Shown here: positions 16,526 through 50,456 of the stretch, one piece after another
How the letters are laid out: every line of letters starts with the position of its first letter
Position numbering within the stretch: the first letter of the stretch is position 1
From: Deltaproteobacteria bacterium
GTDB lineage: Bacteria; Desulfobacterota; Deferrimicrobia; Deferrimicrobiales; Deferrimicrobiaceae
Assembly: GCA_016218975.1 (NCBI GenBank)
Contig: JACRCO010000053.1
Span: 15,523 to 79,522 of the forward strand
Direction of reading: 5' to 3'
Length of the DNA stretch: 64,000 nucleotides
Notes under the pieces: model-generated
What the model was told of the DNA's origin: nothing
What the model saw: the letters and a program-made list of their open reading frames with translations, nothing else
Databases searched by the model: none
Position numbers and translations under genes: made by a program

Positions 16526-16529
16526 AACG

Positions 16530-35368: not shown

Positions 35369-36379
35369 CTATCGGTTGTGGCACTGCTGGCACCCCGCTA
35401 TCGAATCGGCGGGCCTACCGGGTTCCTTGTACGGCCACACCAAGCCCTTCCGATATTTCCCGCCGTGCGCCAGGTGGCAGCTTCCGCACATGACCTGGTT
35501 GCTTGCCGACACGGTTTTCGACGAGGCGAAATCGACCGCCCCGGCCGCCTGGAACCGCAGCCTCGGCACTCCTTCCACAAGGTCGCCCGTCGCAGTTCCG
35601 AAGCCGGCCCCCGAGCCGTCCGCCCAGTGGGCCGGATCCGTCGGCCACCCGGAGGGATATCCCGCTCCGTCGATCGGAACGTCGGAAAGATGGTGGAGCC
35701 GGTTGCCCGGCAGGTTCACGCTCGACTTCAGCCGGTCGTGGCACTCGGCGCACCATGCGGACGTTCCGGCCTTGTATCCTTCGTTCGACTCCTTGTATGC
35801 GGCGGCCGTGGCCGCGGCCGACGGAGGATCGCCGGGAGGCGCCTCCCTGAATACGTCCTTTCCCATCTCCGTTCCGATCCCCTGCCCTCCCGCCGGCGCG
35901 GTGAGAACGTTCCTGTAGTTGGGGGTCCCATGCGGGTCGTGGCAGGAGGCGCAAGTAAGGGTCGCGTTCGAAAGGGTGCTGAAAGGGACGGACGTCGAAT
36001 TAATCCCGAGATCGTGCCCGTTCTGGTTGGCGGCGCCTCCGCTGTTGGAGAAAGATCCGGCCCCGGAGTGCTCGTCGCCGCTTCCCGAATACATCGTCAC
36101 GGGTTCGAGGACGTCGGGAGCCTTGGGGTCGCTGCCGTCGTGGCAGAAAAGACAGAGCTTGTTGGTGGTGGCCCGGACCAGGAGCCTGGGAAACGGCCCT
36201 CCCGGCTCCACCTTCGCGGGCACGCCGCCCGCCTCGCTGTAGTGAAGCGTGTGGCAGTCGCCGCACGGCTGCCGGTTCTTCTGCAGGTCGTGATAGTAGG
36301 CGTGCGACACGTGCCCGGCGGCCAGGAACAGGAAGAGTCCTCCCGCGATCGATCCGCAATACAGGGACGCTCGTCTCAT
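35369..36379 (-). CDS. Hexaheme c-type cytochrome with OmcS-like motif order (family C)
   Basis: Signal peptide, then YYHD...CGDCHTLH, CLFCHDG, CASCHDPHG, CAECHDRL, CGSCHLAHGG, C-terminal CQQCHNR. This parallels OmcS heme-motif order and spacing. Confidence 0.8.
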   Translation of the reverse strand: MRRASLYCGSIAGGLFLFLAAGHVSHAYYHDLQKNRQPCGDCHTLHYSEAGGVPAKVEPGGPFPRLLVRATTNKLCLFCHDGSDPKAPDVLEPVTMYSGSGDEHSGAGSFSNSGGAANQNGHDLGINSTSVPFSTLSNATLTCASCHDPHGTPNYRNVLTAPAGGQGIGTEMGKDVFREAPPGDPPSAAATAAAYKESNEGYKAGTSAWCAECHDRLKSSVNLPGNRLHHLSDVPIDGAGYPSGWPTDPAHWADGSGAGFGTATGDLVEGVPRLRFQAAGAVDFASSKTVSASNQVMCGSCHLAHGGKYRKGLVWPYKEPGRPADSIAGCQQCHNR

Positions 36380-36383
36380 CCGC

Positions 36384-37301
36384 CTAATCCTTCAGGTCTC
36401 CCACCTGGAAAACCTGGACGCGCTCCGCCCCTTTCTCGAGGACGAAGAGCTCCCCTTTCTCGCCGAAACAGAGATCGACCGGAAAGAAGAACCCCCCGCT
36501 TTCGGTCGTCTCTTCCAGCCGCCCGAAGTTGAAAAGGAACTCTCCTTCCGCGGAGAACACCTTCAGCCGGTGCTGGAACGGGTCGGCGATCCAGAGCCGG
36601 CCCTTCGCGTCGGATGCGAACCCGGTCGGAAACGACATGTTCCTGTCCGACTTGTCGCCATGGTCTCCGAAGGAACGCAGGAGCTTGCCGCCGTCGTCGA
36701 AGAGCTGCACCGCCTTCCCCTGTGCGCTGACGCCCACGATACGCCCGCCGCTTTCCCTCCCGGCTTTCTGGAGGTAATCGAACTTTCCCATCGACCGGAT
36801 AAAATCTCCCCGCGAGGACAAGAGAAGGATTTCATTGCCGTCCAGGTCGGCGACATAAACCCGGTCGTCCCTGCCAAGCGTGATCCGGCCGGGTGAAACC
36901 TTGCGGCCCGCCGCATGGGCGAGGTCTATTTCGTCGGAGATCGCCCCCCCCGGACTGAAGATCTTCAGCAGGCCGGTCCGCACCTCGCTGACGTAGATCC
37001 GGCCCGCGTTGTCCAGCGCAACGCCGTACGGCGTGACCAGGCCCGCATCCGCGCCCATCCTCTTGACGATAGACCCGGCTTTGTCGAGGATGACTACCTC
37101 GCCGGACTCGAAGCTCGAAACGATCAGTTCCCCGCTTTTTCCGTCCCGGACGATCGCGAGAGGGCTCCTCAACGCCCGCTCTCCACCCTCATCCTTGAAG
37201 ACGGCGATCCGCCGGATCTCGGGAGCCATGACCTGCGCGAACCCCGGATGCGCGGCAAAAAGCAAGTTCAAACCCGCTGCTGCGAGCAGGATCCGCACCA
37301 T
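36384..37301 (-). CDS. NHL-repeat protein, secreted
   Basis: ORF trimmed to ATG 37301 (MVRILLAAAGLNLLFAAHPGFAQ). NHL-like blades (GRIYVSEVRTGLLKIF, DRVYVADLDGNEILLL, GRLWIADPFQHRLKVF). Confidence 0.8.
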   Translation of the reverse strand: MVRILLAAAGLNLLFAAHPGFAQVMAPEIRRIAVFKDEGGERALRSPLAIVRDGKSGELIVSSFESGEVVILDKAGSIVKRMGADAGLVTPYGVALDNAGRIYVSEVRTGLLKIFSPGGAISDEIDLAHAAGRKVSPGRITLGRDDRVYVADLDGNEILLLSSRGDFIRSMGKFDYLQKAGRESGGRIVGVSAQGKAVQLFDDGGKLLRSFGDHGDKSDRNMSFPTGFASDAKGRLWIADPFQHRLKVFSAEGEFLFNFGRLEETTESGGFFFPVDLCFGEKGELFVLEKGAERVQVFQVGDLKD

Positions 37302-37416
37302 GAACGTCGCGCCGCCAAGCCGGCGGGCGAGCCCCCGCGAGGGACACCCCGTGAGGCGTGCGTAGCCCGGCACTGTAACGGAAAATATTTTCGGAGCGGA
37401 AGACATCGGCTGTCGC

Positions 37417-38328
37417 TCAGATACCGGCGATCGAAAACACCGAGATCCGATTCCCCCCTTCTTCAAGGACGTACAGGTTCTCGTGCGGATCGACGGCAAG
37501 GTCCGCCGGGGAGAACAGGCCCTCTCCGCTCATCGAGAAGATCACGTTCCCGAGCGGATCGAGCGCCTTTATCCCGCGACCCCCCTCCTCAACGACCCAT
37601 ATCCGGCTTCGCGCGTCTACCGCGAGGGCCTTGATCCTGAGCGGCTCCCTCGAGCGCAGGGTTGATGTTCCGATCGTCCGAAGCTGTTTCCCGCGGTCGT
37701 CGTACACCCGGATCCCCCCGAACCCCGGGTCCGCCACGTATATCTTTCCCGTACGGTCGACCCATATGTCCGCGGGCTCGCCGACGTCTGCGATGGAGAA
37801 ACGCAGCTTCTCGTCAGCCCCGAAGGCAAGGACCTGCCGGTTCCCCCGGTCGGCGACGTAAAGATCGCCGTTCCAGTCCGCGAAAAGCGCGGCCGGCTGC
37901 ACCGGCGACGTTCTTCTGTATTGCTTGAGATCTATCTCGCGGTACGCCTCGGCGGCAACGGCGTCGTACCCGTCGAGCGCCTTCACGATTTCGCTTTCCC
38001 TCCCGGCGATGAAAAGCTTCCCTCCGCGCGTTGCGGCCACAGCCCTCGGATATCCCAGCTCGCCGCCTTTCCCCAGGACCTTGACGATCTGTCCTTTGCG
38101 GTCCAGAACGGAAACCTGGTGCAGCAGCGGATTGGCGACCGAAAGGTATCCCCTTTGCTCGTCGTACCAGAGGCCTGTCGGGGAAAGTAAGGCGAGGTCC
38201 GGACCGGAAGGAACGATCGTGACGGACCTTTCCAGGCACAGCGTCCGGGCGGGTGCCGGCGCAAGGATCATGAGTGCGGCCGTCAGCACGACCGCGAAAA
38301 GATCCTTTCGTGAAAATACATGGCGCAT
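37417..38328 (-). CDS. NHL-repeat protein, secreted
   Basis: Signal peptide MRHVFSRKDLFAVVLTAALMILAPAPA. Repeats GDLYVADRGNRQVLAF, GKIYVADPGFGGIRVY, ENLYVLEEGGNRISVF. Confidence 0.8.
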   Translation of the reverse strand: MRHVFSRKDLFAVVLTAALMILAPAPARTLCLERSVTIVPSGPDLALLSPTGLWYDEQRGYLSVANPLLHQVSVLDRKGQIVKVLGKGGELGYPRAVAATRGGKLFIAGRESEIVKALDGYDAVAAEAYREIDLKQYRRTSPVQPAALFADWNGDLYVADRGNRQVLAFGADEKLRFSIADVGEPADIWVDRTGKIYVADPGFGGIRVYDDRGKQLRTIGTSTLRSREPLRIKALAVDARSRIWVVEEGGRGIKALDPLGNVIFSMSGEGLFSPADLAVDPHENLYVLEEGGNRISVFSIAGI

Positions 38329-38346
38329 CCCTGCCGGTTCCCTTCC

Positions 38347-40515
38347 CTATTCCTTTGCCGCGGGGTCGACCCGGCCGGGCTGCGCCGGTTTCAGGAAGAA
38401 TGGTCTTTTATCCGAGCCGTCGCTGTTCATGACGAACAGGCGCTCGTCGTTCTCATCCAGCGAGACGTAAACGATGGTCCCTTCCTCCGGAAGAAGCGCG
38501 GGGAATATCGCTCCCGTCTCCGTCAGCGGCGCCGGCTGGCCCCCCTCCGCCTTCACGGCGAATACGTTGGGAATTCCGTTATGCAAGGCCGTGAATATGA
38601 CGTGCTCGTCAGTCGCATCGAAAAACGGCCGGTGGGTATATTCCGGCTGGAACACCTGGAACTGGCTGTCCACCTCGCTGGAATGAAGTTTTTTCGTTTC
38701 CGTTCCGTCGGCGTTCGATGCGATGAGCTCGCGAACGACCTTCTTCCCGTCGTAAACTGTAAAGGTGTATCCGATCTTTTTCCCGGCCGCGGACCAGAAC
38801 GGATGGGAAGCCGTGGACGGAGGCCTGTCCTCGCCCTTGTTGCTCTCCGCGAACGATGTCACGCGAACCCTGCCGGTCCCGTCTCCCTTCATCGTCCAGA
38901 CATCGACCCCGTCCGTGAATGCGATCTTCTTCCCGTCGTTGGACCACTTCGGCTGAAGGTAAAGCTCGGCCGCGACCTCAGGGGCCGAAGGATAGCGCAG
39001 ATCGCTCAACCGGAACGCATTGTCCGACGCCGTCAGCATGTACAGGCCCGGCGTCTCGCCGTATCTCGGTATGGCGCTTACAAGGACCTTGTCGTCCTGG
39101 ATGGAAGCATCGGCGTCGAGATAGGACCTGAGATCGCCATTGTTGGGAAAATCGATCGGGCCCTTCTCCGAGAAGGCGTGCAGCCCCCTTGCCGAAAACA
39201 CAAGGAGCCCCTCGCTGCGCGGAAGCCAGAATATTCGGGTGTCGCCTTCAAGCGCGAAACCGGGATAAGAAGCCGATTCCTCTCCCGCGATACCCGCGAC
39301 CTTCAAGAATTCGACCCCTCCCTCGTTGGTGAAGAAGGCCACCTTCGTCGCGTCCGGAGAAGGCACTGGCATCCATGCGGAAGGCCTGCTCTTCGCGAGC
39401 GGTTTTACGCTTCCCGTAATCCCGTCAAGTAGGTAGAGCTCGGCGGAGCCGCTCCTCTCCGAAACCCCGGCGAGGACGATGTCTTTTCCGCCGGGGGAAA
39501 GCGAAAAATCGGACAGGTGCAGTTCGGGGGGCGAAATCCTCCTCTCGATGCCGGATGCCATATCAAGCCGCCAGAGCGCGTTGACGCCCACCTGCCTGTT
39601 GCCCGACTTCCTGGTCTCATGCGGCGCCCGCGGTTTTTCCCTGTCATCGTCCACCTTCGCGCCTGCGGTGTTGTCGGCTGCGACGGCGTTATCCGCAGGC
39701 ACGATCTCTATATCCTGCCCGATGTAAAAAATCCCCTTGCCGTCGACATCCCATGCGATACGTCGCCCCGCGAGCCTCGGGGCCTTGAGGACCGTGACCT
39801 CCTTGCCGGACAGATCCATGGTGCGGATCTCGAACTCGCCGGGGCTGGTGGGGAACGGATAGGCTATGAGCCCCGCCTTGTTCGAATAGGCCGGTGTCCC
39901 GATGTACTTGTTCAGAAGCGGCTTGCTCTCCATATCGGACAGGTCGATCTCCCAGATTCCGACTCCGTACGTCTTGCCGGCCTCGTAATAGACCTTTCGG
40001 CTGTCCGGGCTAAAAAAAACCGATCGGACGCTTATCTTTTCGGTCACCGCCTCGACCCTCGATCCGTCCGAGGTGCCGATCCACAGGTCCCGTACGTTTT
40101 GCTGTTCCCCGGGGGCCGTGAAAGCGAAAAGCTTCCCGTCCGGCGACTCGATCGGGATCCCTGCGTTGGGAGGGATACCGGGAATCCGTTCTTCCGGCCT
40201 GCCTCCGTCGATGCCGATCCGTAAAACCTCCTCGTACCCCTTGCGCCTGGCGGAGAACAGGATGGTTTTTCCGTCCGGCGCCCAGCGGAAATGAGAAACC
40301 CCGCGAGTCGTAAGCCGCCGTTTTCCGGAACCGTCGGCGTTCATCACCCAAAGGTCCGCAGGCGTATGCAATGTGGAGGAAAGAAAGGCTATCTTGCTTC
40401 CGTCGGGAGAGTGGACAGGGCTTCTGCCTCCGTTGGGTTCGGCGCTGTTGGCCGGGTTGAACGCAGACATGACAATTATAAAGATAACGGTTAACGACAG
40501 CAGATACTTTTTCAT
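38347..40515 (-). CDS. TolB-like periplasmic protein with multiple PD40/WD40-like beta-propeller repeats
   Basis: Signal peptide MKKYLLSLTVIFIIVMSAFNPANSA. Many SPDG.KIAF-type PD40 repeats (SPDGSKIAFLS, APDGKTILFSA, SPDGKLFAFTA, SPDSRKVYY, SPDATKVAFF, SNDGKKIAFTD). Confidence 0.8.
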   Translation of the reverse strand: MKKYLLSLTVIFIIVMSAFNPANSAEPNGGRSPVHSPDGSKIAFLSSTLHTPADLWVMNADGSGKRRLTTRGVSHFRWAPDGKTILFSARRKGYEEVLRIGIDGGRPEERIPGIPPNAGIPIESPDGKLFAFTAPGEQQNVRDLWIGTSDGSRVEAVTEKISVRSVFFSPDSRKVYYEAGKTYGVGIWEIDLSDMESKPLLNKYIGTPAYSNKAGLIAYPFPTSPGEFEIRTMDLSGKEVTVLKAPRLAGRRIAWDVDGKGIFYIGQDIEIVPADNAVAADNTAGAKVDDDREKPRAPHETRKSGNRQVGVNALWRLDMASGIERRISPPELHLSDFSLSPGGKDIVLAGVSERSGSAELYLLDGITGSVKPLAKSRPSAWMPVPSPDATKVAFFTNEGGVEFLKVAGIAGEESASYPGFALEGDTRIFWLPRSEGLLVFSARGLHAFSEKGPIDFPNNGDLRSYLDADASIQDDKVLVSAIPRYGETPGLYMLTASDNAFRLSDLRYPSAPEVAAELYLQPKWSNDGKKIAFTDGVDVWTMKGDGTGRVRVTSFAESNKGEDRPPSTASHPFWSAAGKKIGYTFTVYDGKKVVRELIASNADGTETKKLHSSEVDSQFQVFQPEYTHRPFFDATDEHVIFTALHNGIPNVFAVKAEGGQPAPLTETGAIFPALLPEEGTIVYVSLDENDERLFVMNSDGSDKRPFFLKPAQPGRVDPAAKE

Positions 40516-40583
40516 ACTACTTCACCACCCTTACGGCCCATTTCTATCGCATGTGATGGGAAACGGAAATCCACCGGGAGAGA

Positions 40584-40625
40584 ATGGAATTCTTCCATGT
40601 TTCCGACATGATGGAAATGGAAATA
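40584..40625. promoter_or_regulatory. Cluster of ATGGAA/TTCCAT inverted half-sites and GGAAAT direct repeats upstream of the TolB-like gene
   Basis: ATGGAAttcTTCCATgTTTCCgacatgATGGAAATGGAAAT. The same half-sites occur at 54347..54393. Confidence 0.3.
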
Positions 40626-40711
40626 TAACAATTTGAACCGTAGTTTGCAAGGCATAATTAAGAACCGTTATCAAACGATTCCCTGTCCTTTTTTCCCCAA
40701 AGTAACTATTA

Positions 40712-42052
40712 TCAAAATCCCTTGACGTAAGCTTTTGTCCCGCCCTTCTGATGGCACTTTCCGCACCCGAATGCAGGGTTGTCCCCGATCGAGACCGCGC
40801 CCGTGAAATCCTGCTGCCCGGCGGGGAGAAACGAGTGGGAGTTCGTGTCCCACCGGGTCATGTTTTCGTAGTTCGAAGCGTGCGCCTTGTGGCATGTGAG
40901 GCACATGATACGGTCCGTAGCCGCAAGCGTTGCCGGATCGGAGGCGGAGGCGACGTTCGCCCTGACGGAGAAGTCGGCATCCCCCTTAACCAAAGGGTAT
41001 TTCCAGTCATAACCAACGGGGTTCGGGTTGTTCCCCTGTGAATTCGTAACGGCCGCATTGTAGGTATCGATGCCGTACTTGCTTCCGGTCGATCTATCCA
41101 TAGTCACGTTGGTCGGGTGCCGTATCCATGCATCGCCCGACCGGGTCTTGTCGTTGTCGGCGTTCCTGTTCTCGCCGTTTCCTCCGTGGAAGTCGCCATG
41201 ACAGACGGCGCAGAACGAGGAGAAGCCGCCCCGGTAGACGTTCTTGTTCGTGTCCGACTCGGCCGTGTTCGGGTACAGTTTCGCGCCTTCGAGCGGGTTA
41301 CCGTCCTTGCGAGTATTCAAATACGTGGTCTCGTTCGGGCCTCCCCGTATGTCGCCGCGCGAGTTGGAAAGGATCGGCTCGTATCCCGGCGCGGTCGTCC
41401 CTTCGTTACCCCCATAGCTCTCGACGCCTTTCGCCGCCGTCTCGCTCCCCGTGTGAACGATCCCGTTCACCTTGCGGCGCAACTGTCTCCATGCCGCCAC
41501 GTTTTCACCGAACCGGTTGTGGGGATCGTGGCACGAGGCGCAGTCCCAGTCGTTCGTCGAAAATCCTCCTCCGGGAGACGCCGTCAACACCGGGTCCGAA
41601 GGCATGACCATCGACTGAACCCCCCTGCTCTTCCCCGGGTTGTGTCCCTTCTTCGGATCGTTGAAGCTCAAATGGAAATCCCCGCCCGGCAACGCGTAAT
41701 TCGACGGGATGTTCCCGGCGCTGCTCATCACCGCCGGGGCCTTGAATGCGGTGCTCGCGGGATAGAGATGGCATTGCAGGCATATGTCGGTGACCGTTGG
41801 CTGCTTGAGAAGTCTCGCGTACGGCCCGGGATTCCCCGTGGTCCCGGCGATGATCGGAGCGCCGTCCTCGCTGTTGTGTATCGTATGGCAGTCGTAGCAA
41901 ACCAGCCCGTCGTACGAGTGGTAAAGCCGCGTGTTCACGCTCCCGGTTATATAGTCGATAAAAGCGTATGCCGGAGGCGCGGCGCCGAAGCAAAGCGCGG
42001 CCATCGAACAAGCGAGGACGAAGCCGGCGGCGGCTCTGGTTCTTTTATTCAT
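40712..42052 (-). CDS. Hexaheme c-type cytochrome, divergent OmcS-related family B
   Basis: ORF trimmed to ATG 42052 (MNKRTRAAAGFVLACSMAALCFGAAPPAYA). YHSYDGLVCYDCHTIHNS, LPGGDF...KGHNPGK, CASCHDPHNRFG, CAVCHGDFHG, CLTCHKAHASNYENMTRWDTN (compare OmcS CLSCHRAHASGFDSMTRFN), C-terminal GCGKCHQKGG. Six CxxCH motifs. Confidence 0.8.
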   Translation of the reverse strand: MNKRTRAAAGFVLACSMAALCFGAAPPAYAFIDYITGSVNTRLYHSYDGLVCYDCHTIHNSEDGAPIIAGTTGNPGPYARLLKQPTVTDICLQCHLYPASTAFKAPAVMSSAGNIPSNYALPGGDFHLSFNDPKKGHNPGKSRGVQSMVMPSDPVLTASPGGGFSTNDWDCASCHDPHNRFGENVAAWRQLRRKVNGIVHTGSETAAKGVESYGGNEGTTAPGYEPILSNSRGDIRGGPNETTYLNTRKDGNPLEGAKLYPNTAESDTNKNVYRGGFSSFCAVCHGDFHGGNGENRNADNDKTRSGDAWIRHPTNVTMDRSTGSKYGIDTYNAAVTNSQGNNPNPVGYDWKYPLVKGDADFSVRANVASASDPATLAATDRIMCLTCHKAHASNYENMTRWDTNSHSFLPAGQQDFTGAVSIGDNPAFGCGKCHQKGGTKAYVKGF

Positions 42053-42138
42053 GATCACCCCCCGGAGGTGGTGAAGCCCTGCGGGCGTGGAGTCACGCCC
42101 GCAGGGCGGCATGAAACATTCTCAAATGGACAGGCGAT

Positions 42139-43536
42139 TTAGAACCCCTTCACGTACGCCTTCGTCCCGCCCTTCTGGTGGCACTTTCCGCAACCGAAGG
42201 TCGGGTTGTCGCCGACTGATGCTCCGGCAACCCAGGCGGTTCCGTTCCAGGTCTGGCCTTCCACATCCGCTCCCCCGTTCGGAAGGAACGCGTGGCCGTT
42301 GGTATCCCATCGTGTCATGTTCTCGAAACTGGATGCGTGCGCCTTGTGGCAGGTGAGGCACGAAAGCCGATCGTTGCCAGACAGCGTGGCGGGATCGGCG
42401 GCCGAAGCCGAAGTGCTCAGCACGGCGAAGTCCGCGTCCGCCTTGATGAGCGGATACCGGAAGTCGTAGCCGACCGGGTTAGGGTTGTTTGCCTGGGCGT
42501 TGGTGACGGTGGCCTTATAAGTGGTGATGCCGTATTTCCTGCTTGTCGGCGTCATATCCATTTTCAGGTTGGTCGGATGCTTCATCCAGACACCGGCGGT
42601 TTGGGTCTTGTCTGTCCCGCCTTCGGTCTGCTCGGTGCCGTGGAAATCCCCGTGGCATGCGGAGCAGAAGGAGGAGAAGCCGCCCTGGTAGACGTTCTTG
42701 TTCGTGTCGCTGTAATCGACAAAGAGGTCCGCGCCCTGGAGATCCTTGCCGTCCTGGCGCTTGTTGACGTAGGTCGTTCCCTGGATGTCGCCGCGGGAGT
42801 TCGACTTGATAGGCTCGTAAGCGGTGTTCTGGGTCTCGCCGCCCGCCGATGTCTCCACGCCGAACGATGTTACGTTGCCGGTAACCACGACGCCGTTCAC
42901 CTTCCGCTTGATCTGCCGCCATGCCGTGTAGCTGCCGCTGAACCGGGAGTGCATCCCGTGGCAGGAGTGGCAGGACCACTCGCCGTCCGTGATGGTGCCG
43001 CCCGGAGGCGCGTTCCCGAGAACCGTGTCAGCCGCCATCAGTTTGGAGGTGGGGCTTGCGGATCCCTTGGTATACGCCGGGTTGTGCCCTTTCTTCGGGT
43101 CCAAATTGGACTGATAGAAGTCGCCCGCAGGCATGGAGATGCCGGCCGGAATGGCGCCGGTGAGCGTCATGACGATCGGGGCGGTCCAGCCTGTGTTCTC
43201 CACGCCCACGAGATCGGCGGATGCGGAAGTGTTGTACCCCTGCTTGTGGCAGGAAAGGCACATATCGGTCCAGTCGCCCTTTTTCAGCAATTCGCGGTAA
43301 GACCCGCCCGCGCCGGGATTCCAGTCCGTGGCGCCGCCGTCCTGTAGCTTGTTACCGGATATGCGGGCGCCGCCATCGCTGTTGTGCAAGGTGTGGCAGT
43401 CCGTGCAGACGAGGCCGTCATAGGAGTGATACTGTGCCGTATTGGGACCGGCGCCCGTCGTCTGGCTGGGCACCGCCGCAATCGCCGGCGCGGCCGTCAG
43501 GGCCGCAATCGCGATCGATAGCAAGAATTTTTTCAT
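42139..43536 (-). CDS. Hexaheme c-type cytochrome, family B paralog
   Basis: ATG 43536 with GGAGGA RBS. MKKFLLSIAIAALTAAPAIAA signal peptide. Same motif set as the 40712..42052 gene. The 867-aa track ORF is a read-through extension. Confidence 0.85.
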   Translation of the reverse strand: MKKFLLSIAIAALTAAPAIAAVPSQTTGAGPNTAQYHSYDGLVCTDCHTLHNSDGGARISGNKLQDGGATDWNPGAGGSYRELLKKGDWTDMCLSCHKQGYNTSASADLVGVENTGWTAPIVMTLTGAIPAGISMPAGDFYQSNLDPKKGHNPAYTKGSASPTSKLMAADTVLGNAPPGGTITDGEWSCHSCHGMHSRFSGSYTAWRQIKRKVNGVVVTGNVTSFGVETSAGGETQNTAYEPIKSNSRGDIQGTTYVNKRQDGKDLQGADLFVDYSDTNKNVYQGGFSSFCSACHGDFHGTEQTEGGTDKTQTAGVWMKHPTNLKMDMTPTSRKYGITTYKATVTNAQANNPNPVGYDFRYPLIKADADFAVLSTSASAADPATLSGNDRLSCLTCHKAHASSFENMTRWDTNGHAFLPNGGADVEGQTWNGTAWVAGASVGDNPTFGCGKCHQKGGTKAYVKGF

Positions 43537-43556
43537 TGCATCCTCCGAAGTTTTCT

Positions 43557-43640
43557 CTGGCGGCCCGGCCGTCCTTCCATCGAAGGATCCGTGGGCTTTG
43601 CGTCCCCCGATTACTCGAGGTTTGCCTTTTTCAGAGGATT
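43557..43640 (-). promoter_or_regulatory. GEMM-I (c-di-GMP/cGAMP class) riboswitch candidate in the leader of the family-B hexaheme gene
   Basis: Minus-sense GGCAAACC-UCGA[GUAA]UCGGGG-GACGCAAAGCC aligns base-for-base with the Vc2-type GEMM-I P1 and core. P2 hairpin UCCUUC-GAUG-GAAGGA covaries with the 19418..19500 copy. The P1 overlaps the stop codon of the upstream NHL gene. Confidence 0.7.
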
Positions 43641-44675
43641 GTTGGGTGTTGACTGCGAAGCGATCCGTCGTTCCTGCGAATTTTCCGTGCACGCCGTTTT
43701 CGTTTCCTGCACCACCTCCTTCTCCTTGAGAAATCGAACCTTGAACACCTGCACACGCTTGAGCGTGTTCTCCAGTACGTAGATACGGTCCCTTCCGTCC
43801 GAGGCGATCCGGGAGGGCATGTAGAACTGGCCGTACCCCTCCCCGATCTTTCCGAACTCCTCGATGAACTCCCCCTCCCGGTCGAAGCAGGAGACCTTGT
43901 TGGTGACCGTGCTGACTACGAAGATATGGCCCGCATCGTCGGCGGCGATGCCGATGGGACGGTCGAGCTGGCCGTAGAGAACGCCGGGCGATCCGAAACG
44001 CTTGAATGTTTTTCCCCTGGGGTCGTAGATCACGACGGAATAGGGGCGCATGTCCGTAAAGAGAAACCGGCCGTTCCGATCGACGGCCATCCCGTAAATG
44101 GTGTTCGGCGCCCCCTCGCCGGAGATGGGGATCTCCTCGTGCGCCACGCCGTCGGGGTCCACCTTGACCACCCCCCCCCGCGTCTTGAGCACGTAGATTC
44201 CGCCGCTCCCCCCGTTGGCGATGGCCATTGGGCGGACGGCGCTTCCGGGCGCGTCTACGATCCCGGGGAGAAGAAGCGCGTCCAGGGGGTTCCCGCGGAA
44301 ATCGAGGATGCTGATCTTCGGGCTGTTCACGTGGCCGAGAAACATCCTTCCCTCGGCGTCCACCGCGACCATCCTCGCCGACCCTTCCTTCTCGCCGGGG
44401 TCGATCGCCTGCACGAACATGCCGTTCCGGTCGTATATAAGGATCTTCCGGATGGCGGCGTCCGCGATGTAGAGTTCGCCGGTTTTCCTGTCGACGAAGA
44501 TGTCCATCGGCTCCCGGAGCCTGTCGGAGCGCCCGCCTGCGTACTCGATCGCATAGAGGAACTCGACGCTCAGGAGGCCGCGATCCGTTCCCGCGGCCGG
44601 GGAGGGCGTTGCAGGCCATGGAATCATGAGGATCGCAAGGATGAGCAGAGCGGGAATTTTCAATCTCGACGGCAT
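43611..44675 (-). CDS. NHL-repeat protein, secreted
   Basis: Probable start ATG 44675 (MPSRLKIPALLILAILMIPWPATPSPAAG). NHL-like repeats (GELYIADAAIRKILIYD, GRFLFTDMRPYSVVIYD, GHIFVVSTVTNKVSCFD, DRIYVLENTLKRVQVF). Confidence 0.8.
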   Translation of the reverse strand: MPSRLKIPALLILAILMIPWPATPSPAAGTDRGLLSVEFLYAIEYAGGRSDRLREPMDIFVDRKTGELYIADAAIRKILIYDRNGMFVQAIDPGEKEGSARMVAVDAEGRMFLGHVNSPKISILDFRGNPLDALLLPGIVDAPGSAVRPMAIANGGSGGIYVLKTRGGVVKVDPDGVAHEEIPISGEGAPNTIYGMAVDRNGRFLFTDMRPYSVVIYDPRGKTFKRFGSPGVLYGQLDRPIGIAADDAGHIFVVSTVTNKVSCFDREGEFIEEFGKIGEGYGQFYMPSRIASDGRDRIYVLENTLKRVQVFKVRFLKEKEVVQETKTACTENSQERRIASQSTPNNPLKKANLE

Positions 44676-44786
44676 GACGCCCAAAGGTTTTGCATCGGGC
44701 ATGCCGCTTGCCCACGCCACCTGCAACCGCCCGATAATTCAAAGGGTTTAAAAAATCAGTCGAGACCGGTTACCCTCCTCGAAATC

Positions 44787-44876
44787 CGAAATGAACAAAC
44801 CTTTTGTTCATTTCGACAACGTATCGAAACGGAAACAATTGCGGCGGAAGGTTACGGATTCGGAAACGTGCGCAAT
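44787..44876. promoter_or_regulatory. 29-bp perfect palindrome plus three GGAAAC direct repeats in a divergent intergenic region
   Basis: CGAAATGAACAAA-cct-TTTGTTCATTTCG (44787..44815), then cgaaacGGAAACAATTGcgg and ttcGGAAACgtgcgcaat. GGAAACAATTG recurs as its reverse complement at 54343..54353. Confidence 0.3.
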
Positions 44877-44973
44877 ATCGCCCTCGTCGGGATATCGACC
44901 CGAATTTTCAGGAGATAATCGGCTTTTGAAAGCAGGAATTCCATCCGGCACGCCGATTGCGTATAAAAACGGC

Positions 44974-45366
44974 ATGACTTCGATGAAGGTATTGATCGTG
45001 GATGACAACCAGTTGCTGTGCTGGGGGCTCGGCAAAACACTTTCGAAGCGTGGCATCATCCATCACGCGGTGGAGAACGGGACCGACGCACTCTCCGAAA
45101 TTCGCAGCGCCTTCTACGATCTTGTTTTTCTCGACATAAAACTTCCGGATGCGAACGGGCTGGACCTGTTGCCGGTAATCCGCGGGATCTCTCCCGGAAC
45201 GAAAGTCGTCGTCATCAGTTCCAACGGGTCGGAAAGCAATGTACGCCGGGCGATGGCTGCGGGCGCCGTCCGGTTCATGGAAAAACCGTACACCTGCGAG
45301 GAGCTTGCGGAAGCGCTCGAAGCGGTCTTCCCCCGGAAATCCGAAGGGAAGCCTGCAAGCAAGTAG
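44974..45366 (+). CDS. Single-domain CheY-like response regulator
   Basis: MTSMKVLIVDDNQLL...LVFLDIKLPDANG...VVVISS...K receiver signature. The 44791 N-extension falls inside the palindrome and is probably not coding. Confidence 0.7.
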   Translation: MTSMKVLIVDDNQLLCWGLGKTLSKRGIIHHAVENGTDALSEIRSAFYDLVFLDIKLPDANGLDLLPVIRGISPGTKVVVISSNGSESNVRRAMAAGAVRFMEKPYTCEELAEALEAVFPRKSEGKPASK

Positions 45367-45370
45367 CCCC

Positions 45371-46759
45371 CTATTCCAACCCGAATTTCTTTATCTGGTA
45401 CCTCAGCGACTGATACGTGACGTTCAGGAGTTTCGCCGCCACCGACTTGTTCTGCCTGCTTCTGTCCAGCGCCTGCACGATGAAATCCCTTTCCACGTCA
45501 TCGAGCGAGATTCCCGATTCGGGCAGCAGGAACCGCACTTCGTTTCCGCTTTCCGGTGACGGCAGCGTGCGAACCATCTCCTTCGGCAGGTGTTCCGGCC
45601 GGATCGTATCCGCATTCTCCAGCACGACGAGCCTTTCGATCACGTTTTTCAATTCCCTGACGTTTCCGGGCCACCGGTAGGTCGTCAGCATTTTCGCGGC
45701 CTCCGGGGAAAATCCTTCCACGTTGCACTTGTTATATCTTTTACGGAAGTAGGAAAGGAAATGCTCCGCAAGGACGGGAATATCCTCCCTACGCTCCCTC
45801 AACGGAGGGATGTTGATGGAAAACGCGTTGAGCCGGTAATAGAGATCCATGCGGAAATCGCCCGTTTCGATCCCCTTCACCAGGTCCCGGTTCGTCGTGG
45901 CGATGACGGCGACGTCGACCGGGATCTCCGACCCGCCCCCGATCCTGCGCACCGCTTTCCGCTCCACGATCCGCAACAGCTTCGTCTGGCAGTTCTGCTT
46001 CATGTCGCCGATCTCGTCGAGAAGAATCGTCCCCTTGTTCGCCATTTCAAAGACGCCTTTTTTATCCGCCTTCGCGTCGGTGAAGGCGCCCTTTTCGTAC
46101 CCGAAGAGCTCGCTCTCCAGGAGAGATTCCGGCAGGGCGGTGCAGTTGACGGGGATGAAAGGCGCCCGCCGGGATGCTTCCTCCCCGTGGATCGACCGGT
46201 GGAGGAACCTCGCGATCACTTCCTTCCCCGTGCCGCTTTCCCCGGTGATAAGCAGCGTGGAAACACGCGCCTGCACCATCTTCCGGATCTTTTCCCGGAT
46301 CTCGCCCGCGGCATCGGAAGCGCCTATGAACTCCGCTTCCGAAAGGTCCGAATGGACAAGCCGGAGGGACTGGACCTCCCGCTCGAGCCGGTCTTTCTCG
46401 AAAACCTTGTCGATGACGATTCCGACCTCTTCGAGGTTGAACGGCTTGGTCAGGTAGTCCACGGCGCCCAGTTTCATCGCCTTGATCGCCGTTTCGGCGG
46501 TGTCGTCCGAGGTAAGCATGATCACCTTCGTATCGATCCGGCTGGCGGTGATTTCCTGGAGGATCTCGATGCCGTTCTTCACGGGCAGCTTTATGTCCAG
46601 GAGGACGATGTCGGGAAGGAACGAGTTGACCAGCCCGAGGACGTCATCGCATTTCGTGTCGGGTTGGATCTCGTATCCCTGCTTCCTGAACCATCTCGAC
46701 AGCGTGGCGACGATCAGCGGATCGTCGTCGACGAGCATTATCTTTCCTCTCGCCGTCAT
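45371..46759 (-). CDS. Sigma-54-dependent response regulator (NtrC family), paralog of the 22991..24379 gene
   Basis: Receiver (IMLVDDDPLIV), AAA+ (GESGTGKE, ESELFGYEKGAFTDA), C-terminal HTH. Confidence 0.9.
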   Translation of the reverse strand: MTARGKIMLVDDDPLIVATLSRWFRKQGYEIQPDTKCDDVLGLVNSFLPDIVLLDIKLPVKNGIEILQEITASRIDTKVIMLTSDDTAETAIKAMKLGAVDYLTKPFNLEEVGIVIDKVFEKDRLEREVQSLRLVHSDLSEAEFIGASDAAGEIREKIRKMVQARVSTLLITGESGTGKEVIARFLHRSIHGEEASRRAPFIPVNCTALPESLLESELFGYEKGAFTDAKADKKGVFEMANKGTILLDEIGDMKQNCQTKLLRIVERKAVRRIGGGSEIPVDVAVIATTNRDLVKGIETGDFRMDLYYRLNAFSINIPPLRERREDIPVLAEHFLSYFRKRYNKCNVEGFSPEAAKMLTTYRWPGNVRELKNVIERLVVLENADTIRPEHLPKEMVRTLPSPESGNEVRFLLPESGISLDDVERDFIVQALDRSRQNKSVAAKLLNVTYQSLRYQIKKFGLE

Positions 46760-48216
46760 CCCGGTTTCCCTTCTTCCTCCACCGTTTTTCGCGGAAGAAC
46801 GATCCGGACAAGGATGCCCCCCGCCGGATTGTTCCCCACGGTGATATCGCCGCCGTGCTGCCCGATGAGCTGCCTGCAGATCGCGAGTCCAAGACCGGTC
46901 CCCTTCGATTTCGTGGTGAAGAAGGGCTGGAAAATCTTGCAGATCATGTCCGGGTCGATTCCCTTGCCCGTGTCCGTGATGTCGATCAGGATGGAATCGC
47001 CGGAGACGTCGTAGTGGGTTCCCACGGCGAACATGCCCCCGCCCGGCATGGCGTCGATGGAATTCAGGAGCAGGTTCAGGAAGACCTGCTGGAGCTGGAC
47101 CGGGTCGGCCATCGTCAAGGGAATCCGGTCGTCAAGGTCCTTGACGATCCGGATGCCGTTTTGCCCTTCGGGGGAAGAACGGTTGGATTTCAGGTAGAAA
47201 TCTATCGTCGTGGCGATGATTTCGTTCAGATCGACGCTCTCCCACTGCGGCTTGGGAGGCTTGGCGAAGTTGAGGAAATTCTTCATCAGGGTTTCGAGCC
47301 TGCCCACTTCGTCGACGATCTGCGAAAAGAGGATCCGGTCCTCGTTCCGCAGCGTCAGTTCCTCGGAGAGCAGGTTCACCGCCGCCTTGATCCCGGCGAG
47401 CGGGTTCTTCACCTCGTGCCCCAATCCCGCCGCCAATTCCCCGACAACCGCCATCTGTTCCGTCCGCTGCATCTGGAGCATCTGCTCCTTGAGGGATCTC
47501 GCCATTTTGTTGAAGGAAGCAGACACCTCCCCGAACTCGTCCTTCAGTCCCTCGATCCGGTAATCGAGATCGCCGCTCTCCAGTCTCCGCGTGGCGGTGA
47601 GAAGCTCGTTCATGGGGCGCGCCAGTCCCCGTATGGACACATACGCGAAGATGACCGAGAAGACGGGTCCCGCCGCGATAAGGACGAAGAGCATCGTCTT
47701 CATCAGCGCAATCTGGCGGAACGCCACCTGGGTGTTCGACGAAAGGTTCCTGCTCGTCAGGGCGACTATGCTGTTCACCTTTTCGATCAGCCCCTGCCCC
47801 GTTACGATGGCGCGGTCCTTCTCGGTCTCCAGCCGGTCGCTCCCTGCGCCGAGCGTCAACACGCGGCTTAAGGCATCCTTGTAATTCTCCGTCATGCGCT
47901 TCAGGTCGTTCAGGTTTTCCAACACCTCGGGCGAGTGGTGGCACGTGAAACACTTGTCGGCCACTTTCCCCATGTGAATGCTGTGGGTCACGATGGTATC
48001 GACGCTGCTGGCGTACCGCGTTCCGCTCAAGGTGAGGTCGGACTGCACGCCCTTGATATGGATCAGCAGGTGTTCCCGGAGAATTTCGACCTGGTGCAGC
48101 TTGATGAGCTTGTCGAGCTTCGAAGTCGCCCGTTCGACGGTGACGATGATGTAGATTCCGCAAAGCGTGAACAGGAAACAGATTACACCCAGGGCGATGA
48201 TGATCTTCTTTTTCAT
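46756..48216 (-). CDS. Sensor histidine kinase with CxxCH in the periplasmic loop, paralog of the 24376..25830 gene
   Basis: N-terminal MKKKIIIALGVICFLFTLCGIYII. Periplasmic KVADKCFTCHHS (about 47938..47952). H-box LAAGLGHEVKNPL, HATPase G-boxes. Confidence 0.85.
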   Translation of the reverse strand: MKKKIIIALGVICFLFTLCGIYIIVTVERATSKLDKLIKLHQVEILREHLLIHIKGVQSDLTLSGTRYASSVDTIVTHSIHMGKVADKCFTCHHSPEVLENLNDLKRMTENYKDALSRVLTLGAGSDRLETEKDRAIVTGQGLIEKVNSIVALTSRNLSSNTQVAFRQIALMKTMLFVLIAAGPVFSVIFAYVSIRGLARPMNELLTATRRLESGDLDYRIEGLKDEFGEVSASFNKMARSLKEQMLQMQRTEQMAVVGELAAGLGHEVKNPLAGIKAAVNLLSEELTLRNEDRILFSQIVDEVGRLETLMKNFLNFAKPPKPQWESVDLNEIIATTIDFYLKSNRSSPEGQNGIRIVKDLDDRIPLTMADPVQLQQVFLNLLLNSIDAMPGGGMFAVGTHYDVSGDSILIDITDTGKGIDPDMICKIFQPFFTTKSKGTGLGLAICRQLIGQHGGDITVGNNPAGGILVRIVLPRKTVEEEGKPG

Positions 48217-49194
48217 CTACTCGTTCGAAAACCGGTAGGTGGCAAGGTCGATTCCGAGTTCCCTGGTATAGGACAGCACCGGCTCGTAGTCGGCATCGGT
48301 CGTCCTGATGAAACTCCGCGCCCCGAACGCCTTCAATACTTTCGCTCCTTCCGGGTCCGCATGCATGGTGACCAGCGCCTCCGAAATCTTCCGTTTCACC
48401 GCATCCTCGAGGGTTTTCCGCAACGCCAGGCCGTTTTCGGGCACATCCGCCGATCTCGCCAGGATCGTGAGCTCGCGGCCGATCCGGGGGTCCTCCGCGG
48501 CAAGCCTTTTGAAAACCGTGTTTTTCGCGGCGCCGATATCCGCCGCGTTTTCGAGCACGTCCCGCACCGTGCCTTCGTGCGTACCCGTAAAGTGCACGTC
48601 GCCGAAATAGGAGTCGATGTTCCCGACCCCGGCCCTTTTCATATGGATCAAGGGGAACAGGTACCCCGCGGTGGTCGCCCTGGCCACCAGCGCGAGCCGC
48701 TTCCCCTTCATCCGGCCGACCGTCCTGATTCCGCTGTTTTTCCGGACGAAGATGACCCCATGATACGTCGATGTCCCGTCCGGCTCTTCTGGCCTGGCGA
48801 GGACCTCGACGCCGAGTTTCGCCTTGGCCAACGAATAGCCGAAACTTCCGAAGAAAGCGCCGTCGAGTTTCAGGGCCTCGAAGTTGTCTATTACATTCCC
48901 GTAGTAGGTCAGCACCTTCAATTTGATCCGGACCCCCGCTTTCTTCGACAGGTAGTCGGCGAGGGGCTCGTACCGCTCGATCTGCTTGAAGATGTTCTGT
49001 TCGGGGATAAGGCCGATGAGAAGAGTGGTTTCCGGAGGCGGCTGCTCGGCCGTTTCCCGGTCTCTCTGCCCGCAGCCCGTAAAAAAAGCGAAGAAGAGAA
49101 AAAGGAATGCCAGGAAACGGGGGAACGCCCGGCGAACCCGGGTTTCGCTCAGAAGGCTTTCCGGAACGCTTTCGAGCCCCCCATACGATGGCAC
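48217..49194 (-). CDS. PhnD/SsuA-like periplasmic substrate-binding lipoprotein (start uncertain)
   Basis: The C-terminal ~300 aa of the 792-aa track ORF matches the PhnD-like paralogs (LIGLIPEQNIFKQIERYEPLADYL...). Lipoprotein N-terminus RRAFPRFLAFLFLFFAFFTGCGQ has no in-frame ATG. The nearest candidate is GTG 49194, which overlaps the upstream gene by ~45 nt. Confidence 0.65.
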   Translation of the reverse strand: MPSYGGLESVPESLLSETRVRRAFPRFLAFLFLFFAFFTGCGQRDRETAEQPPPETTLLIGLIPEQNIFKQIERYEPLADYLSKKAGVRIKLKVLTYYGNVIDNFEALKLDGAFFGSFGYSLAKAKLGVEVLARPEEPDGTSTYHGVIFVRKNSGIRTVGRMKGKRLALVARATTAGYLFPLIHMKRAGVGNIDSYFGDVHFTGTHEGTVRDVLENAADIGAAKNTVFKRLAAEDPRIGRELTILARSADVPENGLALRKTLEDAVKRKISEALVTMHADPEGAKVLKAFGARSFIRTTDADYEPVLSYTRELGIDLATYRFSNE

Positions 49195-50456
49195 TTGCCG
49201 CAGCCGTGCGCCGGGTTGTCTCCCGTCGAAGCGACGCCGGACGGATCCTTCTCTCCGGCGGCAAGAAACGAGCGGGCGCCCGTATCCCAGCGCGTCATGT
49301 TCGCGAAGGGGGATGCATGCGCCTTGTGGCACGTCAGGCAGGATATCCGGTCGCTTCCCGCGATCGTGGCAGGGTCGTTCGCGGACGCAGCGCGGCTTCT
49401 CACGGAAAAATCGGCTTCCGCCTTGACCAGCGGATACTTCCAGTCGTAGCCGGCAGGATTGGGGTTGGCGCCCTGCGAATTTACGACCGCGGCCGCATAC
49501 GAGGCGATCCCGTGCTTCGCCCCCGATTCGCCCATCGGCATGTTGGCCGGGTGCCGGATCCACCCTCCCCCGGCGCGCGTTTTCCCGTTGTCGGAGGATC
49601 GCGTTTCCCCGCTCCCCCCGTGGAAGTCGCCGTGGCAGGCCGAACAGAAGGAGGAAAATCCCCCGCGGTAGACGTTCTTGTTGTCGTCCCCTTCCGTTTT
49701 GGATAGATCCGCACTCTCGAGTTCCTGTCCGTCCTTGCGCCGGTTCAGGTAGGAAGTCCCCTGGATGTCGCCGCGAGAATTGGAAAGGATGGGCTCGAAG
49801 CCCGGCGACGTCGCCCCCAAGGTTCCTCCGGAGCTCTCCACCCCTTTTTCCACGGTTTCGTTCCCGGTATGAACGATCCCGTTGACCCTCCGCTTCAGTT
49901 GCCGCCACGCCGCCACCGTCTCCCCGAACCGGTCGTGGGGATCGTGGCAGCTTACGCAGTCGAAGTTGTTGGCCGAAAAGTTCCCTCCTGGCGCGACGGT
50001 CAGGACCGGATCCGAAGGGATCGATGAGGACTGCGCGCCGCGGGTCTTCCCCGGGCTGTGCCCCTTCCGCGGATCCGTCGAACTCCAGTAGAAATCGCCG
50101 GCGGGAAGGGAGGTTCCGCCCGGCGCGGCGCCGTTGGAAGTCATCACGGCAGGGGCCTTGAATGCGGCATTGCCGGGGGCGAGATGACACTGGAGGCAGA
50201 GGTCCGTCACCGACGGTTTCTTCAGAAGGATAGCGGAAGGGCCGCCGGAGGCCGTCCCCGTGGGCTTCGCCGCACCGTCCTCGCCCGAATGGAGAACGTG
50301 GCAATCGCTGCAAACGAGGCCGTCGGCGGAATGGTAAAGCTTCGTGTTCACGCTCAGGGATATGTCCACGTAGGGGAAGGACGGTGAGGGAAAAACGATT
50401 ATCGACCCGATGGCCAGCGTAAAGAAAATAACGGCAGAAGATTTTGTTCCGATCAC
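49149..50456 (-). CDS. Hexaheme c-type cytochrome, family B paralog (start probably GTG 50456)
   Basis: YHSADGLVCSDCHVLHSG, LPAGDF...KGHSPGK, CVSCHDPHDRFG, CSACHGDFHGG, CLTCHKAHASPFANMTRWDTG, C-terminal GCGKCHRMGG. Signal peptide VIGTKSSAVIFFTLAIGSIIVF after GTG with a GGAGAC RBS. Confidence 0.8.
   Translation of the reverse strand: MIGTKSSAVIFFTLAIGSIIVFPSPSFPYVDISLSVNTKLYHSADGLVCSDCHVLHSGEDGAAKPTGTASGGPSAILLKKPSVTDLCLQCHLAPGNAAFKAPAVMTSNGAAPGGTSLPAGDFYWSSTDPRKGHSPGKTRGAQSSSIPSDPVLTVAPGGNFSANNFDCVSCHDPHDRFGETVAAWRQLKRRVNGIVHTGNETVEKGVESSGGTLGATSPGFEPILSNSRGDIQGTSYLNRRKDGQELESADLSKTEGDDNKNVYRGGFSSFCSACHGDFHGGSGETRSSDNGKTRAGGGWIRHPANMPMGESGAKHGIASYAAAVVNSQGANPNPAGYDWKYPLVKAEADFSVRSRAASANDPATIAGSDRISCLTCHKAHASPFANMTRWDTGARSFLAAGEKDPSGVASTGDNPAHGCGKCHRMGGSKAFRKAF

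Follow-up and report, generated by a model that had tools for sequence, protein, structure and literature searches.

A conserved gene cluster for divergent OmcS-like hexahaem cytochromes near a canonical omcS-osc-type cluster in a Deltaproteobacteria contig

Introduction

Can a hexahaem cytochrome that is only a distant relative of OmcS still be the subunit of an extracellular wire? The question is raised by a 64,000-nucleotide stretch of DNA from a Deltaproteobacteria bacterium (assembly GCA_016218975.1, contig JACRCO010000053.1, forward-strand positions 15,523 to 79,522), hereafter the window, whose own numbering is used throughout. The contig, 276 kb long and with locus tags HY896_, comes from a metagenome-assembled genome. 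It contains three paralogous cytochrome genes, designated family B (B1, B2 and B3), a shorter hexahaem gene (H6) and two further genes of the true OmcS type. A first-pass annotation of the window had proposed that family B and H6 could be new filament-forming or extracellular cytochromes, an interpretation that the analysis supports in part. What is known of OmcS comes nearly all from Geobacter and, to our knowledge, the bacterial cytochrome nanowires with structures are of three types only (OmcS, OmcE and OmcZ). How to tell true nanowire subunits from their numerous paralogues is recognised as a problem that annotation has yet to solve (PMC12977616). The reading favoured here, which is given a probability of roughly 0.5, is that a second, divergent osc-like system has family B as its structural cytochrome, which would most likely polymerise as OmcS does and be fed by a 42-haem and a decahaem cytochrome.

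Family B within the OmcS Superfamily

The four genes in question are the following.

40712-42052, minus strand: B1, family-B hexahaem OmcS-like cytochrome of 446 amino acids, with a Sec signal peptide ending in AYA
42139-43536, minus strand: B2, family-B hexahaem OmcS-like cytochrome of 465 amino acids, tail CGKCHQKGGTKAYVKGF, adjoining an NHL gene
49149-50456, minus strand: B3, family-B paralogue (subtype "HM", tail CHRMGGSKAFRKAF) with MtrA/MtrB-like genes immediately upstream
35369-36379, minus strand: H6, short (336 amino acids) hexahaem member of the OmcS superfamily, a core gene throughout the cluster

All four open reading frames (ORFs) were confirmed where the first-pass annotation had placed them, with exactly six CxxCH motifs each. 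The motifs that it had listed for family B were likewise found (YHSYDGLVCYDCHTIHNS, PGGDF...KKGHNP, CASCHDPH and CLTCHKAHASNYENMTRWDT), as was the C-terminus GCGKCH(Q/R)(K/M)GG..A(Y/F). Pairwise identity amounts to 65% for B1/B3, 53% for B1/B2 and 49% for B2/B3. A possible lipobox in B1 (VLAC) was dismissed, its cysteine not being conserved in the family consensus.

The view that the resemblance of family B to OmcS is confined to short signatures did not hold. The proteins are colinear with OmcS residues 1-346, over about 345 residues at 27-29% identity, the similarity being global over haems 1-5 and the BLASTP E values ranging from 3e-16 (B2, 27% identity) to 4e-30 (B3, 29%). When B1 was compared with the PDB by phmmer, OmcS (6ef8/6nef) was the sole real match (E 4.7e-21, B1 45-403 aligned on OmcS 2-347). 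Pfam and NCBIfam returned only generic multihaem domains for the family-B and H6 proteins, which means that no other characterised family claims them. Six colinear CxxCH motifs and significant similarity to OmcS place both family B and the H6 family in the OmcS superfamily, and it is close to certain that family B is homologous to OmcS, has its fold and conserves its haem ligands.

When 1.84 billion representatives at 50% identity were searched with a profile, one full-length representative scoring 685 bits covered the whole of family B, the next relative reaching 168 bits, and the wider superfamily amounted to 1,244 representatives at E<=1e-3. Judged by sequence, family B is a discrete, divergent clade of this superfamily. 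About 110 clusters (90% identity) are at least 42% identical to B1, a number of homologues in public data that excludes chance; all derive from metagenome-assembled genomes (MAGs) or metagenomes, and the few that are named are labelled hypothetical protein or generic cytochrome.

Compared with OmcS itself (GSU2504; PDB 6EF8/6NEF; the hexahaem nanowire subunit of Geobacter sulfurreducens), family B constitutes a separate clade with three distinctive traits. About 14 additional residues precede the first ligand histidine at the N-terminus of the mature protein, whereas OmcS starts with F1-H2; the spacer between haems 5 and 6 measures 46 residues instead of 72; and the protein ends in a conserved 12-residue tail, GGxxA[FY]VKxF-COOH, where OmcS ends in AKD-COOH. 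Family B thus presents neither the close full-length similarity nor the CNKCHAKD end of canonical OmcS/OmcT orthologues. The true OmcS-type genes of the window are A1 and A2, which the first-pass annotation had correctly regarded as canonical, each product being 50% identical to full-length OmcS (E 1e-122 and 1e-127) and ending in CNKCHAKD.

Distant OmcS-like clades have already been published, namely DA_402 of Desulfurivibrio alkaliphilus (PMC12545173), the OmcS-like proteins of sulfate-reducing bacteria (SRB) that are partners of anaerobic methanotrophic (ANME) archaea (PMC10553843), and GSU2501/OscC, OmcT and OmcJ as relatives of OmcS in G. sulfurreducens (PMC12977616). Family B differs from these in having six, not seven, haem motifs, as well as its own tail and its own gene cluster, the distinction from GSU2501 and DA_402 being drawn from their descriptions. 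When an identity of family B or H6 with GSU2501/OscC was looked for, the top 120 matches of both families and ten distant-relative clusters gave no names, the GSU2501 sequence itself not being part of the comparison. No description of the family-B clade, its tail or its cluster architecture was found in the literature searched, which did not extend to Shen 2025. Divergent OmcS-like clades and osc clusters are already known, and the family-B system is a further variant of these.

Haem Ligation

In OmcS all 12 axial ligands are histidines, one of the haem-5 ligands being supplied by the neighbouring subunit (Filman 2019). Family B retains this pattern of twelve, as judged by alignment conservation only. 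A joint alignment of 230 proteins was built from OmcS, A1, A2, 99 full-length family-B proteins, 119 members of the H6 family and nine intermediate relatives. The six CxxCH histidines and the equivalents of OmcS H2, H110, H147 and H335 are invariant in all of them. The H257 column is kept in 115 of the 119 H6-family members and in every other protein, and the H16 column in 83 of the 99 family-B proteins (B1-B3 included) and throughout the H6 family (119/119). Exactly twelve histidine columns are therefore conserved, enough for six bis-histidine haems, a count that reflects conservation and not coordinates; OmcS H63 and H247 are lost even in A1 or A2.

The inter-subunit ligand of haem 5 in OmcS is reportedly His16, an assignment attributed to Wang et al. 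2019. Its equivalent in B1 is His59, located three residues after the first CxxCH, and it is also present in B2, in B3 and in every full-length family-B copy encoded in the related cluster loci (L001-L016). By this equivalence, B1-B3 possess the histidine with which a nanowire subunit would complete haem 5 of its neighbour. The ligation pattern, which the first-pass annotation had named as a check, is accordingly borne out.

Termini and Subtypes of Family B

The C-terminus is the most distinctive part of family B. The 12-residue tail follows the haem-6 histidine in 84 of the 99 members and phenylalanine is the last residue in 91, the tail consensus being near-invariant. The last 26 residues, tail included, match the haem motifs in conservation (3.4-3.7 bits), and such a strongly conserved C-terminus suggests a protein-protein or sorting function. 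The closest shorter relatives have C[GN]KCHxxGG and then end, so that the family-specific addition can be delimited to xxA[FY]VKxF-COOH. GlyGly-CTERM, PEP-CTERM and the C-terminal domain of the type IX secretion system were considered as identities for the tail and dismissed on its length and composition, by reasoning alone. As a separate observation, the family-B end (...A[FY]VKxF-COOH, e.g., at 40712-40750) resembles that of the outer-membrane protein of the cluster (...FFRVRFSKSF-COOH, at 32167-32200), both fitting [FY]xKxF-COOH, so that a soluble cytochrome has an end like a beta-signal.

Three subtypes can be distinguished according to the His16 equivalent and to the second residue after the haem-6 histidine. 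Subtype "HK" (79 of 99) combines the His16 equivalent with CHQKGG and includes all full-length copies found inside cluster loci. Subtype "HM" (4 of 99) is that of B3, with CHRMGG. Subtype "xM" (16 of 99) is devoid of the His16 equivalent and all its members have methionine at position +2 after the haem-6 histidine. No family-B protein lacks both His and Met (Fisher p = 4e-15, with the xM proteins looking like one clade), and the loss of the histidine and gain of the methionine may have been a single event. There is no other clade-specific histidine in xM, Met436 and Lys356 being the only candidate replacement ligands. The xM copies were found at these positions.

L012 9995-11296; L017 3-746; L018 2293-3762; and a subset of P0066-P0104: xM copies, those recovered in L012, L017 and L018 being orphans among housekeeping genes

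It is plausible, from this pattern of residues, that xM is a monomerised derivative in which an intramolecular methionine takes the place of the inter-subunit histidine.

The Family-B Gene Cluster and Its Distribution

B1 and B2 are embedded in a module whose remaining genes, apart from H6, are the following.

43611-44675, minus strand: NHL-repeat six-bladed beta-propeller (Pfam NHL/DUF5128), directly upstream of the B genes, position conserved in the loci
38347-40515, minus strand: PD40/TolB-like beta-propeller of 722 amino acids with a signal peptide (Pfam PD40 2e-15; NCBIfam TolB propeller 1e-32, below cutoff)
37417-38328, minus strand: NHL-repeat beta-propeller (Pfam NHL 3e-13), synteny conserved
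36384-37301, minus strand: NHL-repeat beta-propeller (Pfam NHL 2e-15), paralogue of the OscK-like NHL protein at 6524-7690 (9e-12)
33936-35339, minus strand: decahaem c-type cytochrome with a signal peptide, nine CxxCH and one CxxxCH (Pfam Paired_CXXCH, MtrC/MtrF II-IV), following H6 in the loci
32167-33978, minus strand: outer-membrane-type protein of about 600 amino acids ending in FFRVRFSKSF-COOH, a putative porin, anchor or secretion barrel conserved in 9 loci
31553-32167, minus strand: LpoB-like lipoprotein (Pfam LpoB), paralogue of the OscF-like protein at 13686-14267 (30%, 8e-19)
30920-31537, minus strand: CsgG/LpoB-like lipoprotein (Pfam CsgG 4e-5 and LpoB), paralogue of the C-terminal domain of the OscG-like protein at 12542-13708 (35%, 6e-18)
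27748-30897, minus strand: 42-haem cytochrome of 1049 amino acids with 42 CxxCH, following the lipoproteins in L003 and L006

The NHL protein upstream of the B genes is a paralogue of that encoded beside A1 (26%, 1e-20). The PD40 matches of the larger propeller lie near both ends of the protein, so that it possibly comprises two propellers, and the gene is conserved in 15 loci. For the outer-membrane-type protein, Pfam and NCBIfam gave no match and the PDB only marginal porin (chitoporin) matches. The N-terminal two thirds of the 42-haem cytochrome match the 26-haem OscI-like protein of the window (36%, 3e-123) and its C-terminal third the 16-haem OscJ-like protein (36%, 8e-63); from these matches, the protein is a fusion of OscI-like and OscJ-like parts.

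The distribution of the module was surveyed by scanning 185,579 species-representative genomes for two family peptides, A[YF]GC[GN]KCH and Y[RQ]GGFSSFC. The scan returned 20 loci, all of them in MAGs and none in a cultured species, under the labels Nitrospirota/Thermodesulfovibrionia, Deltaproteobacteria, Krumholzibacteriota, Acidobacteriota, Ca. Desulfobia, Geobacteraceae, Geopsychrobacteraceae and Anaeromyxobacter. The recurring gene order is NHL, B (one to three copies), PD40 propeller, NHL, NHL, H6, decahaem, outer-membrane protein and two lipoproteins, with the 42-haem gene coming next where the sequence of the locus continues, which makes a module of 11-12 genes. A position-equivalent family-B copy, closest to B2, occurs in every cluster locus recovered (L001-L016). 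The full order was found in MAGs labelled Nitrospirota/Thermodesulfovibrionia, Deltaproteobacteria, Geobacteraceae, Krumholzibacteriota and Anaeromyxobacter, and a partial order (NHL-B) in Acidobacteriota and Ca. Desulfobia MAGs. Thermodesulfovibrionia were credited with "OmcS" when the DeMMO MAG collection was surveyed with FeGenie (PMC8478452), and two of the present loci, L004 and L009, bear DeMMO isolate names.

The 196-bp spacer between B1 and the PD40 gene (40516-40711) appears AT-rich by eye in a genome of about 60% GC. It holds the sole sigma70-like match in 35300-50800, at 40650-40622 (minus strand), which may act as an internal promoter of the accessory genes. Over the same interval, scans for sigma70 promoters and terminators remained at or below shuffled controls, and RNA folding of the intergenic regions between B1 and the PD40 gene and between B3 and the adjoining binding-protein gene was no better than that of shuffled sequences.

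Relationship to the omcS-osc Cluster

About 13 kb from the region reported in the first-pass annotation, a canonical omcS-osc-type cluster occupies positions 6524-22086, with these genes.

20818-22086, plus strand: A2, OmcS-like cytochrome
19600-20589, minus strand: NHL gene between A2 and A1
18127-19395, minus strand: A1, OmcS-like cytochrome
16530-17966: OscD-like YncE/cytochrome-d1-like beta-propeller of 478 amino acids
14336-16606: OscE-like protein of 756 amino acids
13686-14267: OscF-like, LpoB-like lipoprotein
12542-13708: OscG-like, GNA1162-like lipoprotein
10724-12460: OscH-like SurA/peptidyl-prolyl isomerase (PPIase)
8717-10702: OscI-like 26-haem cytochrome
7432-8778: OscJ-like 16-haem cytochrome
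6524-7690: OscK-like NHL protein

The osc machinery is said to be widespread, and Shen et al. in 2025 reportedly described OscD as propeller-like and OscH as containing a prolyl isomerase. The eight genes that follow A1 match GSU2500-GSU2493 (oscD-oscK) in number, order and content. The eight-gene block GSU2500-GSU2493 itself is documented in PMC12977616. Two papers assign OscD about 473 residues and an effect on morphology, OscEFG a role in secretion, OscH one in folding, and describe OscI and OscJ as cytochromes (PMC12977616, PMC13194489). The canonical cluster is bordered by a 1694-amino-acid protein (1339-6423, plus strand). It contains beta-helix, MBG, Big and PKD domains and is probably a large protein of the surface or adhesin-like kind.

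Compared with the osc cluster (GSU2505-GSU2493), the B module is alike in having one or more OmcS-type genes followed by beta-propellers, an outer-membrane protein with two small lipoproteins, and giant multihaem cytochromes, and both occur across phyla. Through paralogy, it thus combines OscF/G-type lipoproteins and OscI/J-type giant cytochromes with an OmcS-type gene. It differs in carrying a PD40/TolB-like propeller and lacking both the OscD-type YncE/cytochrome-d1-like propeller and an OscH-type PPIase, in fusing the OscI and OscJ equivalents into the 42-haem protein, in adding the decahaem cytochrome and H6, and in having an outer-membrane protein without detectable relation to the OscE-like channel protein. 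From gene content and paralogy, the B module looks like a rearranged paralogue of the osc nanowire-assembly cluster.

H6, B3 and the MtrAB-Like Conduit

The first-pass annotation had also considered H6 to be OmcS-like, and this was borne out by its six CxxCH and by its family profile, which matches only OmcS in the PDB (E 1.7e-12), the match of H6 alone being weak (E 2.4e-6). Profile-profile alignment by hhalign relates the H6 family to family B end to end, haem 6 included (99.8%, E 1.4e-29), and all 12 ligand histidines are kept in 115-119 of the 119 members. H6 lies downstream of B in 12 of the 12 loci with enough flanking sequence. It is likely a minor, base or periplasmic partner.

B3 has a different neighbourhood, being directly preceded by two genes of a porin-cytochrome type.

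50698-53172, minus strand: MtrB/PioB-type porin (Pfam MtrB_PioB 1.5e-130)
53211-54116, minus strand: MtrA-like decahaem cytochrome with ten CxxCH (NrfB-like/Paired_CXXCH domains)

The same MtrB-B3 adjacency was found only in the closest relative, L001. As in MtrCAB, a surface-type cytochrome gene accompanies an MtrA-like decahaem and an MtrB/PioB porin, and H6, the decahaem and the outer-membrane protein of the module follow the mtrC-mtrA-mtrB order. However, B3 is a hexahaem of the OmcS fold where a decahaem of the MtrC/OmcA family would be expected as third component, and the second outer-membrane protein matches no MtrB/PioB model. The match of B3 to an MtrC/MtrF domain is only marginally over the Pfam cutoff (33.4 versus 30 bits). 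This arrangement suggests a porin-cytochrome conduit whose surface partner would be an OmcS-fold hexahaem and not an MtrC-type protein.

An Associated Regulatory Module

Between the NHL gene upstream of B2 and B3 lies a set of regulatory genes.

44791-45366, plus strand: response regulator
45371-46759, minus strand: sigma54-type activator
46756-48216, minus strand: histidine kinase
48217-~49120, minus strand: PhnD-like periplasmic binding lipoprotein (Pfam Phosphonate-bd 1.5e-62)

The module at 44791-49120 duplicates that at 22283-27706, the proteins being 55-59% identical and the receiver domains of the two response regulators 48%. One copy lies beside each cytochrome cluster. The response regulator is single-domain and divergently placed, and the copy at 22283-27706 has two binding lipoproteins. 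A similar module is found upstream of B in L001, L003, L013, L014 and L016, and a kinase and a sigma54 activator also flank the intermediate OmcS-like gene of L021. The sigma54 consensus is not enriched in the window (36 matches versus 48 expected), with none convincing upstream of B1, B2 or B3. A one-mismatch -24/-12 site, TGGCATATGGCTTGC, was noted at 20605-20619 (minus strand), just upstream of the NHL-A1 operon.

A Model for Family B and Its Alternatives

B1 and B2 are best explained as the structural product of the module, and B3 as a paralogue attached to an MtrAB-type conduit. Nanowire loci typically comprise multihaem cytochromes, beta-propeller lipoproteins, the gene of the subunit and a large beta-barrel, a porin-like pathway serving as the mount of the filament (bioRxiv 2025.10.22.684050), and it is because the B module fits this description that it is read here as a nanowire system. 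Family-B proteins are Sec-exported and likely extracellular. In the proposed mechanism, the subunits would cross the outer membrane helped by the outer-membrane protein and the OscF/G-like lipoproteins, and would then assemble head to tail in the manner of OmcS, haem 6 stacking on haem 1 of the next subunit and B1 His59 completing haem 5 of the neighbour. The outcome would be an extracellular haem wire, to which the periplasmic 42-haem and decahaem cytochromes would supply electrons and which the adjacent module of binding protein, kinase and sigma54 activator would turn on. Polymerisation as such has about even odds, given that the junction-forming termini differ from those of OmcS.

Several observations weigh against this model. 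The alignment with OmcS ends at about residue 347, and the OmcS-like C-terminal region that carries haem 6 and stacks on haem 1 of the next subunit was not recognised, the haem-6 CxxCH itself being present. As the subunit-junction region differs (spacer of 46 versus 72 residues, N-terminal extension of about 14 residues, new tail), any filament would need a different interface. The same twelve histidines, His16 equivalent included, are also found in the H6 family and in the intermediate group, which makes the His16 equivalent a superfamily trait and no marker of filament formers, and the ligation pattern alone no predictor of filament formation. The AlphaFold2 model of B1 (61 family members in the alignment; mean confidence, pLDDT, 75; predicted template modelling score, pTM, 0.77) was scored as having the OmcS fold, but Foldseek found no match for it in the PDB, and the model is weak, if only at residues 23-81 (confidence below 50), which include haem 1 and His59. 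As for the osc parallel, the labels given to genes of the window rest on gene order and domain content set against descriptions in secondary papers, and the OscG-like protein, used as a query, retrieved nothing but metagenomic proteins and no named Geobacter protein. Homologues of the OscD-like, OscE-like and OscH-like proteins were found neither in the B module nor in the 20 related loci, and hhalign gave a probability of 0.6% for the outer-membrane protein of the module against the OscE-like protein, that is, no detectable homology. Finally, in the OmcS superfamily only OmcS has been seen as a filament, G. sulfurreducens OmcT, OmcJ and GSU2501 not (PMC12977616).

The strongest alternative is a serious contender but falls short of being probable. 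Family B and H6 would be non-polymerising carriers of the OmcS fold, monomers or small oligomers at the outer surface or in the periplasm, passing electrons between porin-cytochrome conduits and minerals or partners, with the accessory genes serving export and localisation; this is the default assumption for OmcT, OmcJ and OscC/GSU2501. It accommodates well the position of B3 behind MtrA/MtrB-like genes, where a surface cytochrome of the MtrC type would stand, the mtrC-mtrA-mtrB-like order of H6, decahaem and outer-membrane protein, and a junction-forming C-terminal region unlike that of OmcS. The 16-member xM subclade, with its orphan copies, further shows that the fold can work without an inter-subunit histidine. 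It explains less easily why cluster copies retain the His16 equivalent, which in OmcS has no intramolecular haem to bind, why both termini are so strongly conserved, and why the layout, with one to three subunit genes in tandem and then propellers, barrel and lipoproteins, resembles that of known nanowire loci.

The nanowire reading can also be extended to a bolder and, taken as a whole, unlikely proposal, in which bacterial cytochrome nanowires would include a fourth structural type with family B as its major subunit, having the OmcS fold and a new junction made from the conserved N-terminal extension and the beta-signal-like tail. In the same joint proposal, H6 would nucleate or anchor the filament on a conduit of decahaem and outer-membrane protein, as a base or adaptor using the same contact of haem 6 with haem 1' and histidine. 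The system would have spread horizontally among uncultured subsurface Nitrospirota, Desulfobacterota, Myxococcota, Acidobacteriota and Krumholzibacteriota, and orphan xM proteins would be monomerised, the methionine at +2 replacing the inter-subunit histidine to give a His/Met haem 5.

It is improbable that the module, filamentous or not, works inward, with Fe(II), minerals or a syntrophic partner as the source of electrons. The porin by B3 belongs to the MtrB/PioB family, which includes conduits of Fe(II) oxidisers, the cluster occurs in subsurface Nitrospirota/Thermodesulfovibrionia and in sulfate-reducer-like lineages, and OmcS-like proteins of syntrophic SRB have been proposed to take electrons from ANME archaea (PMC10553843). 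Yet nothing in the sequence fixes a direction, multihaem bis-histidine wires being reversible, and the same window has a canonical omcS-osc cluster typical of metal reducers. That the OmcS resemblance is a mere by-product of CxxCH-rich composition, the ORFs forming no meaningful family, could draw on the generic Pfam/NCBIfam matches and the empty Foldseek result, but is already refuted by the E value of 4.7e-21 against OmcS, the conserved ligand histidines and the gap between 685 and 168 bits.

Significance

Family B is a sharply bounded and unusually conserved OmcS-fold clade with a fixed gene neighbourhood, distributed among uncultured bacteria of the subsurface and groundwater that, going by record labels, represent at least five groups of phylum level. 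The B module and the canonical omcS-osc cluster, lying in one window, form a natural pair for learning which accessory genes such a system cannot spare: both clusters retain two lipoproteins, giant cytochromes and NHL propellers, whereas an OscD propeller, an OscE-type protein and a PPIase can be dispensed with or have been replaced. In addition, the tail motif together with the synteny provides a clean marker for recognising this system in metagenomes, where current tools appear to lump family B under "OmcS".

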